The position numbers were made by a program, and so were the translations under genes. The notes beneath the pieces are model-generated. The model was not told where the DNA came from. It worked only from the letters and a program-made list of their open reading frames with translations, and ran no database searches. From Gemmatimonadales bacterium (GTDB taxonomy: Bacteria > Gemmatimonadota > Gemmatimonadetes > Gemmatimonadales > GWC2-71-9), in NCBI GenBank assembly GCA_035631795.1, contig DASQIB010000179.1, forward strand, positions 1 through 51,801: a stretch of 51,801 bases of DNA. The letters are read 5' to 3'. Below are positions 29,166 through 29,606 of the stretch, one piece after another. How positions within the stretch are numbered: position 1 is the first letter of the stretch; the number at the start of each line of letters is the position of its first letter.

Positions 29166-29606
29166 TCACGCCAGCGCCGAGTGGATGTGGATCTCGGACG
29201 TCAGCGTTCGGTGCACCGGACACATGTCCCCGATCTCGTGTAGTCGGTGCCGCTGTTCGTCCGTCAGCTCGCCATTCAATGCGACCACGACCTCGATGTG
29301 GTCGAGCACCCCCTGCTTCGTCTCGCACTCCGCGCAATCCTCGGCGTGAATCCGCGAGTGCCAGAGGCGCACCGTCACCTCACGGAGCGGCCAGCCTTTC
29401 CTTCGCGCATACAGCGCGATGGTCATGGACGTTCACGCACCGAGTCCCGCGAGGAGTAGGTCGTAGGGAGTGGGACCTGTGTCCGTGCCGCCCGACGAGA
29501 CGGGCTCATCTGCACTGAAGTGATGACTGCCGACCGCAATTCCCTGCGCGAATCCCTTTGCGCTCCCGGTTACTACGACCACACCGGGTCTTTTGCTCTC
29601 CTCCAT
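29166..29606 (-). CDS. OsmC/YhfA-family peroxiredoxin-like protein interrupted by an in-frame TGA (29435..29433) at the conserved peroxidatic Cys; candidate selenoprotein or pseudogene
   Basis: Track ORFs 29433..29675 and 29166..29426 are in the same frame. Together they read ...[14 protein letters not shown][TGA][16 protein letters not shown]...LHEIGDMCPVHRTL. The family consensus has Cys at the TGA position, and the resolving CPV Cys is intact. ATG at 29606. Confidence 0.75.
29403..29419 (-). other. SECIS-like hairpin UCGCGC-UGUAU-GCGCGA downstream of the in-frame UGA
   Basis: 6-bp stem, extendable by CC/GG across an A-A mismatch. The stem starts 13 nt after the UGA. The loop has G at position 2 and starts 19 nt after the UGA. 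Confidence 0.35.

Follow-up and report, generated by a model that had tools for sequence, protein, structure and literature searches.

Among the genes of the analysed stretch of 51,801 nucleotides (hereafter the window), which comes from a Gemmatimonadales bacterium of soil, we found one of the OsmC family, located at 29166..29606 on the minus strand, that very probably encodes a selenocysteine (Sec)-containing OsmC-type thiol (selenol) peroxidase. From the sequence comparisons described here we put the probability of this reading at roughly 0.87. The gene comprises 146 codons including an in-frame UGA at codon 58 (29433..29435, minus strand), which is the peroxidatic position, occupied by Cys in homologues and by a predicted Sec in the window. 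This UGA together with a downstream RNA hairpin was conserved in more than 100 species. The UGA was conserved at the catalytic column with translation-type constraint on both of its sides, and the hairpin was under a nucleotide-level constraint that was found in UGA-containing genes only. Comparative criteria for selenoproteins have been described before (PMC1088965), and the corresponding features were found here: a UGA that stands against Cys in homologues and is flanked by conserved sequence on either side, and a stem-loop just downstream that carries a G in its small apical loop.

Translation of minus-strand positions 29606..29166 gave one continuous frame in which the TGA of codon 58 (29435..29433) was the sole internal stop, and which ended with a terminal TGA at 29168..29166 (minus strand). 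The ORF listing had cut the gene into two pieces (29433..29675 and 29166..29426). The proposal of a preliminary description of this DNA, that the two adjacent ORFs are one OsmC gene in a single frame with the TGA as its only interruption, was borne out by the translation. With Cys placed at codon 58, the protein matched the Pfam family OsmC (PF02566) over residues 40-141 with 61.2 bits (E=1.4e-16; curated cut-off 27.5 bits). Full-length homologues numbered in the thousands among 5.8 billion proteins searched, and the best of them were 65-72% identical. The column of codon 58 was Cys in 23/23 aligned closest full-length homologues (G[AS]CTSMT), C91, C94 and C129 were likewise invariant across these 23 sequences, and all invariant OsmC-family residues were kept in the window gene. 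In an alignment to E. coli K-12 proteins U58 fell on the Cys of YhfA and on Cys59 of OsmC, which is the established peroxidatic residue in E. coli. The predicted resolving cysteine, Cys129 (GDMCPVHRTL; codon at 29220..29222, minus strand), aligned with OsmC Cys125. It had been claimed from the window alone that the TGA sits at the conserved catalytic Cys column and that the second, resolving Cys is intact, and both statements agree with these alignments.

E. coli OsmC and YhfA belong to the same Pfam family as the window protein, share 21-22% identity with it and carry Cys where it has the predicted Sec. The closest solved relative was PDB 9wo1 ('Osmotically inducible protein C', 400 aa; E = 3.8e-33, residues 8-138), for which a literature search found no paper. 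Both this protein and the window protein have the motifs GLGACTxMT (with the Cys/Sec column), DCxxCE and CPVH; unlike the window protein, 9wo1 is a Cys form and the similarity lies in the C-terminal domain of a longer protein. The pair C91-x-x-C94 (DCAECETK; 29325..29336, minus strand) lies in an insertion that is absent from E. coli OsmC and YhfA and present in 9wo1. In some Dehalococcoidia Sec forms (L083, L087, L098) one or both cysteines of this pair were lost or altered, and since such forms exist without it, the core mechanism probably does not involve the CxxC pair.

We then screened genomes for orthologues with TGA at the same codon, as had been suggested in the preliminary description. 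A TGA-specific degenerate pattern (L-G-x-TGA-T-S-M-T-x3-Y-A-R) was scanned against one genome per species for 185,579 species. It retrieved 112 loci, which is far beyond chance given an expectation of about 0.5 (calculated with equal base frequencies). All of them (112/112) were OsmC genes of the same clade with TGA at the same codon. Nearly all were intact: downstream breaks occurred in three loci (L076, L094, L105), five were cut by a contig end, and the others were intact on both sides of the TGA. According to their labels, 38 loci belonged to Gemmatimonadetes/-ales/-aceae, 38 to Methylomirabilota/Rokubacteria, 19 to Acidobacteriota, 11 to Chloroflexota/Dehalococcoidia and six to others, so that TGA orthologues spanned at least four phyla. 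All 112 loci came from metagenome-assembled genomes (MAGs), with no isolate among the related sequences. One Methylomirabilota MAG (DASZOL01) held three TGA-type copies (L020, L028, L049), two of them on contig DASZOL010000031.1, which suggests that the Sec form can be multi-copy in one genome. When other recurrent genes with in-frame TGA were screened for in the fetched loci, only OsmC and its off-frame shadows were found; a stricter GC3 screen, applied to the window beforehand, returned no such genes and missed OsmC itself.

A neighbour-joining tree was calculated from 231 sequences (106 Sec forms, 102 Cys forms from metagenomes and 23 close homologues with Cys). Here the window gene fell into an all-Sec clade of six together with L038, L035, L093, L011 and L056. 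Long syntenic stretches were common to the window and L038, L035 and L093, the gene order was also found in a further assembly (L238), and L038 (Gemmatimonadales MAG DATLVU01) had about 91% nucleotide identity to the window. The preliminary description had named a decayed copy in close relatives as a sign of a pseudogene; the syntenic relatives were found to carry an intact TGA gene. Between the window and its clade relatives dN/dS was 0.09-0.13 for the part before the UGA and 0.13-0.38 for the part after it, and this second part is therefore under purifying selection at the protein level.

Two further observations were made on these data. Within the window's clade dS was 2-7 times lower downstream than upstream of the UGA (29166..29432 versus 29436..29585), for example 0.10 versus 0.75 for L038 and 0.30 versus 1.64 for L093. 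The six hairpin codons alone do not account for this low downstream dS; a wider constraint at the RNA level, recombination or local rate variation are possible causes. Sec and Cys forms were interleaved in the tree, with at least 21 state changes by parsimony on a tree that is short and noisy, which is consistent with either repeated Sec/Cys switching or horizontal transfer. Two placements disagreed with their labels. L004, labelled as an uncultured Clostridia bacterium, was placed with mostly Acidobacteriota loci by the tree and by its near-identical SECIS region, and L096 (Solirubrobacteraceae) sat in a clade holding Methylomirabilota/Rokubacteria forms. Errors of binning or taxonomy, or else recent transfers, seem to explain both.

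The gene neighbourhood was as follows. A gene for an SH3_3-domain protein (Pfam SH3_3; 29638..30420, minus strand) lies upstream and ends 31 nt before the OsmC start codon; it is possibly co-transcribed with OsmC, and the same SH3_3-OsmC gene order was found in L038 and L238. An AraC-family regulator gene (Pfam HTH_18/HTH_AraC; 28366..29163, plus strand) is convergent and ends 2 nt from the OsmC stop codon, an arrangement that was repeated in L238. A segment of about 2.6 kb (30408..33004), with a sulfite-oxidase-type molybdoenzyme gene (Oxidored_molyb and Mo-co_dimer) at 30989..32209 and a cytochrome c gene within 30411..31484, was missing from the otherwise collinear L038, L035 and L093 and, judged by gene order, from L238. 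It represents either an insertion in the lineage of the window or a deletion in the others. Other genes of the window encode a Uma2-family putative endonuclease (33004..33864), a Ser/Thr kinase adjoining a response-regulator-GGDEF protein (35464..38178) and an ATP-dependent DNA ligase (40983..42533). Several long ORFs of high GC3, e.g. 33569..34912 and 24929..25636, had no Pfam match, and among plasmids searched with blastn there was no more than a distant Cupriavidus match.

Downstream of codon 58 the mRNA can form a SECIS-like hairpin whose upper stem and loop, UCGCGC-UGUAU-GCGCGA, occupy 29403..29419 on the minus strand (nucleotides 17-33 when the U of UGA is numbered 1). Positions 29419..29414 pair with 29408..29403 (nucleotides 17-22 with 28-33) and enclose the apical loop UGUAU at 29413..29409 (nucleotides 23-27, minus strand), in which G24 is located at 29412 and U25 at 29411. 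Minimum free energy folds extended the hairpin to 29400..29422 (minus strand) by a lower stem of C14-G36 and C15-G35 across an A16/A34 mismatch, which makes 6 bp, or 8 counting the lower stem. The hairpin that had been proposed was thus recovered at its coordinates with G24 in the second position of the loop. The geometry of bacterial SECIS elements that had been invoked for it also fits, the loop GU lying one nucleotide off its position in E. coli fdhF (24-25 versus 23-24).

Folded on its own, the 66-nt stretch was no more stable than expected (z = -0.06; 90/200 dinucleotide shuffles folded as well). Stability alone is therefore not evidence for the hairpin, and we used a comparison between Sec and Cys genes instead, with 120 Cys-encoding genes from metagenomes as a control that was retrieved by the same pattern with TGY replacing TGA. 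Codon choice after the UGA was nearly fixed among the 113 Sec genes. The commonest codons were GCG at +6 (101/113), CTG at +7 (105/113), GCG at +9 (104/113) and CGA at +10 (96/113), CGA making up only 8.9% of the Arg codons in the window. Synonymous-codon entropy in Sec genes was 0-0.8 bit at +5..+7 and +9..+10 and mostly 1.1-2.1 bits elsewhere, compared to 1.4-1.9 bits at +5, +9 and +10 in Cys genes, where codon +7 was usually Met. The peptide ALYAR did occur in five Cys genes, in which it was written with other codons. The folding energy of nucleotides 13-39 was -12.6 +/- 1.5 kcal/mol in Sec genes versus -4.9 +/- 2.8 kcal/mol in Cys genes (Mann-Whitney p = 2e-37), and the core motif GCGCTGTAYGCGCG was present in 100/113 Sec genes and 0/120 Cys genes.

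Across 93 distinct sequences the six named pairs were formed in 95.9% of cells, compared to 10-65% when the partner was slid. Compensatory double changes were seen in three pairs (8 compensatory cells out of 558); covariation was modest because the stem hardly varies. Compensatory variants were UCUUGC/GCAAGA in L002 and GCCGCGC/GCGCGGC in L003 and L102, and in Dehalococcoidia CCUCC/GGAGG stood in place of the stem. The loci with this CCUCC/GGAGG stem (Dehalococcoidia/Chloroflexota L017, L032, L039, L042, L061, L083, L087 and L098) had a larger loop than the GCGC form, and from their sequences we regard them as a divergent variant of the same clade in both the putative SECIS and the protein. 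The shape that includes the lower stem was the commonest fold class of the Sec set (30 sequences), and nucleotide 15 co-varied with codon +11 (C with xGG, G with CGC). The short lower stem is thus likely to be real, and is less certain than the upper one because its register differs between lineages. RNAalifold returned an empty consensus structure for the 93 sequences (alignment A2), which we treated as a tool or threshold effect on a short hairpin within a coding region. No Rfam match was obtained for the whole window at the gathering score, nor any SECIS family for 29250..29550 at E<=10. Bacterial SECIS elements are specific to gene families, and the lack of an Rfam match therefore says little.

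The hairpin of E. coli fdhF (after UGA140) offers a direct comparison. In both cases the element lies in the coding sequence directly downstream of the UGA, has a small apical loop with a GU (G23-U24 in fdhF, as read from the K-12 genome, versus G24-U25 in the window) and is interrupted by a mismatch or bulge beneath the upper stem. The two differ in the loop, which is GGUC in fdhF and UGUAY in the window clade, and in the window the upper stem consists of 6 bp that are all Watson-Crick and the role of SelB is a prediction.

Genes for the Sec-decoding machinery were searched for in 1.46 Mb of fetched loci by tblastn with E. coli SelA, SelB and SelD and by ARAGORN. The 51.8-kb window contained no selA, selB, selD or tRNA-Sec, and ARAGORN found no tRNA or tmRNA there. 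Likewise no such machinery was found in the flanks of the 112 Sec-type loci. A literature search on selenoproteins or a Sec-decoding trait in Gemmatimonadota returned nothing relevant. Among the fetched loci only L213, a metagenome contig (Ga0209161_10002700), carried Sec machinery, namely a cluster of selA (partial), selD and tRNA-Sec at 5..2491. A Cys-type OsmC copy of the same clade is encoded on this contig at 8845..9396, about 6.5 kb from the sel cluster. An organism with Sec machinery thus appears to keep the Cys form, and the linkage between the sel cluster and OsmC is probably coincidental. Being a metagenome contig with a Cys-type copy, L213 is uninformative for the window. An altered genetic code was considered and rejected: TGA is an ordinary terminator in the window, where it is the stop of 18/30 Pfam-supported genes as well as of the OsmC gene itself. 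TGA being the main terminator, the genetic code is therefore standard.

If the gene encodes a selenoprotein as proposed, SelB-GTP-Sec-tRNA(Sec) would bind the mRNA hairpin 13 nt downstream as the ribosome reaches UGA58. The hairpin, with its G+C-rich 6-bp stem and 5-nt loop, would present G24 and U25, and Sec would be inserted at UGA58 in place of termination. The terminal UGA of the gene (29168..29166) has no such hairpin and would terminate translation normally. By analogy with OsmC/Ohr the U58 selenolate would attack the hydroperoxide, and the resulting selenenic acid would be resolved by Cys129 to a selenenylsulfide and recycled by an external reductant. The C91xxC94 pair might relay this recycling step.

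Another reading of the same data is that the gene is split, with translation stopping at UGA58 and re-initiating at the ATG at 29426, so that pieces of 57 aa and 86 aa would be made that lack the catalytic residue, and with a hairpin that serves coupling or regulation instead of Sec insertion. In its favour, all members have an ATG (Met61) 6 nt past the TGA, both pieces are indeed predicted by gene callers, and Sec machinery was not found in the window or in the flanks of the Sec loci. However, the Cys forms conserve Met61 (TSMT) to the same degree, so that the ATG is no peculiarity of the TGA genes. A split would remove precisely the catalytic residue and interrupt the fold, although all other active-site residues are still conserved. 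Sec/Cys pairs at redox sites are an established selenoprotein signature (PMC1088965). Moreover, the hairpin would sequester the region just past the supposed restart codon, and its position and GU loop fit a SelB-type element. We therefore consider a split gene improbable.

Just as improbable, in our view, is a read-through that does not depend on a SECIS element, in which a near-cognate or suppressor tRNA would decode UGA58 (e.g. as Cys or Trp) while the hairpin slows termination. It is general knowledge that stop-codon read-through can be stimulated by downstream structure. This would, however, leave unexplained why recoding always falls on the catalytic Cys column and why the loop G24-U25 is kept at an fdhF-like distance. 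Furthermore, a plain TGC would serve better were Cys intended, and TGA is the main terminator in the genome.

Less probable still is that the TGA is a recent nonsense mutation, a sequencing error or the lesion of a decaying pseudogene in a TGC/TGT Cys codon: one substitution is enough to turn TGY into TGA, the nearest full-length homologues in databases are Cys forms throughout and the hairpin is statistically ordinary as a single sequence, but this alternative, which the preliminary description had raised, is excluded by the comparative data and effectively refuted by the same TGA in 112 other loci from several phyla that are nearly all intact, by the five TGA-bearing sequences of the all-Sec window clade (three sharing long synteny, plus a further syntenic assembly), by the purifying selection downstream and by the retention of all invariant family residues.

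The reading as a Sec-containing peroxidase also has a precedent within the family. In 2005, three sequences of the Sargasso Sea metagenome led to the prediction of OsmC-like selenoproteins (COG1765, motif UxxT; Zhang, Fomenko & Gladyshev, PMC1088965), which are still contained in reviews of 2022 (PMC9312934) and 2026 (PMC13188914). The statement in the preliminary description that such proteins had been predicted from metagenomes was correct. The window gene has in common with the Sargasso Sea family and with the NCBIfam model NF041052 ('OsmC-related (seleno)protein') the OsmC fold, an in-frame UGA where homologues have Cys, a presumed redox function and a downstream hairpin, predicted to be a bacterial SECIS, whose small apical loop contains a G. 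The published motif of the Sargasso Sea family is UxxT, compared to U-T-S-M-T in the window. The window clade furthermore has the extra CxxC insertion and comes from soil and groundwater phyla, whereas the Sargasso Sea family derives from marine plankton. NF041052 was the best NCBIfam model for the window protein, with 55.1 bits below the cut-off of 95, and five TGA-bearing relatives from other phyla scored 35.7-65.7 bits against the same cut-off. The window clade is thus a relative of the NF041052 family that lies outside that model.

In public databases the gene is represented as fragments. The best 120 database matches to the C-terminal piece were nearly all ORFs of 86-88 aa, one of these 120 being named 'OsmC family protein [Gemmatimonadales bacterium]'. 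On four assemblies the gene calls were an ORF of 57 aa and, six nucleotides away, one of 86 aa, and the public calls of relatives start the N-terminal 57-aa piece at the same ATG as the window gene. An exact-sequence look-up of the 86-aa ORF of the window found no database record. We lean slightly towards regarding these genes as a selenoprotein clade that is widespread among soil and groundwater bacteria and has so far gone unrecognised, has a near-invariant SECIS of its own (core GCGCUGUAYGCGCG), falls outside the NCBI model and is systematically annotated as fragments. If this is true, the Sec-decoding trait would be common in the poorly studied Gemmatimonadales, Methylomirabilota/Rokubacteria, Acidobacteriota and Chloroflexota, and the near-identical SECIS across phyla together with the interleaved Sec and Cys forms would point to repeated switching or to horizontal spread of the gene with its SECIS.

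The general understanding of selenoproteins is unchanged by this finding, as Sec/Cys pairs at peroxidatic sites and OsmC-like selenoproteins were already established. The gene belongs to a known kind, in a clade and phyla in which it appears to be unannotated. In hundreds of public records an annotation error would be corrected, two OsmC fragments being one selenoprotein, and the SECIS, being compact and extremely conserved, could be the starting point of a covariance or HMM model with which such genes are annotated automatically. For the organisms themselves the finding would imply that UGA is decoded as Sec in Gemmatimonadales and in several other dominant soil phyla, and it would link the availability of selenium in soil to peroxide defence in these bacteria.
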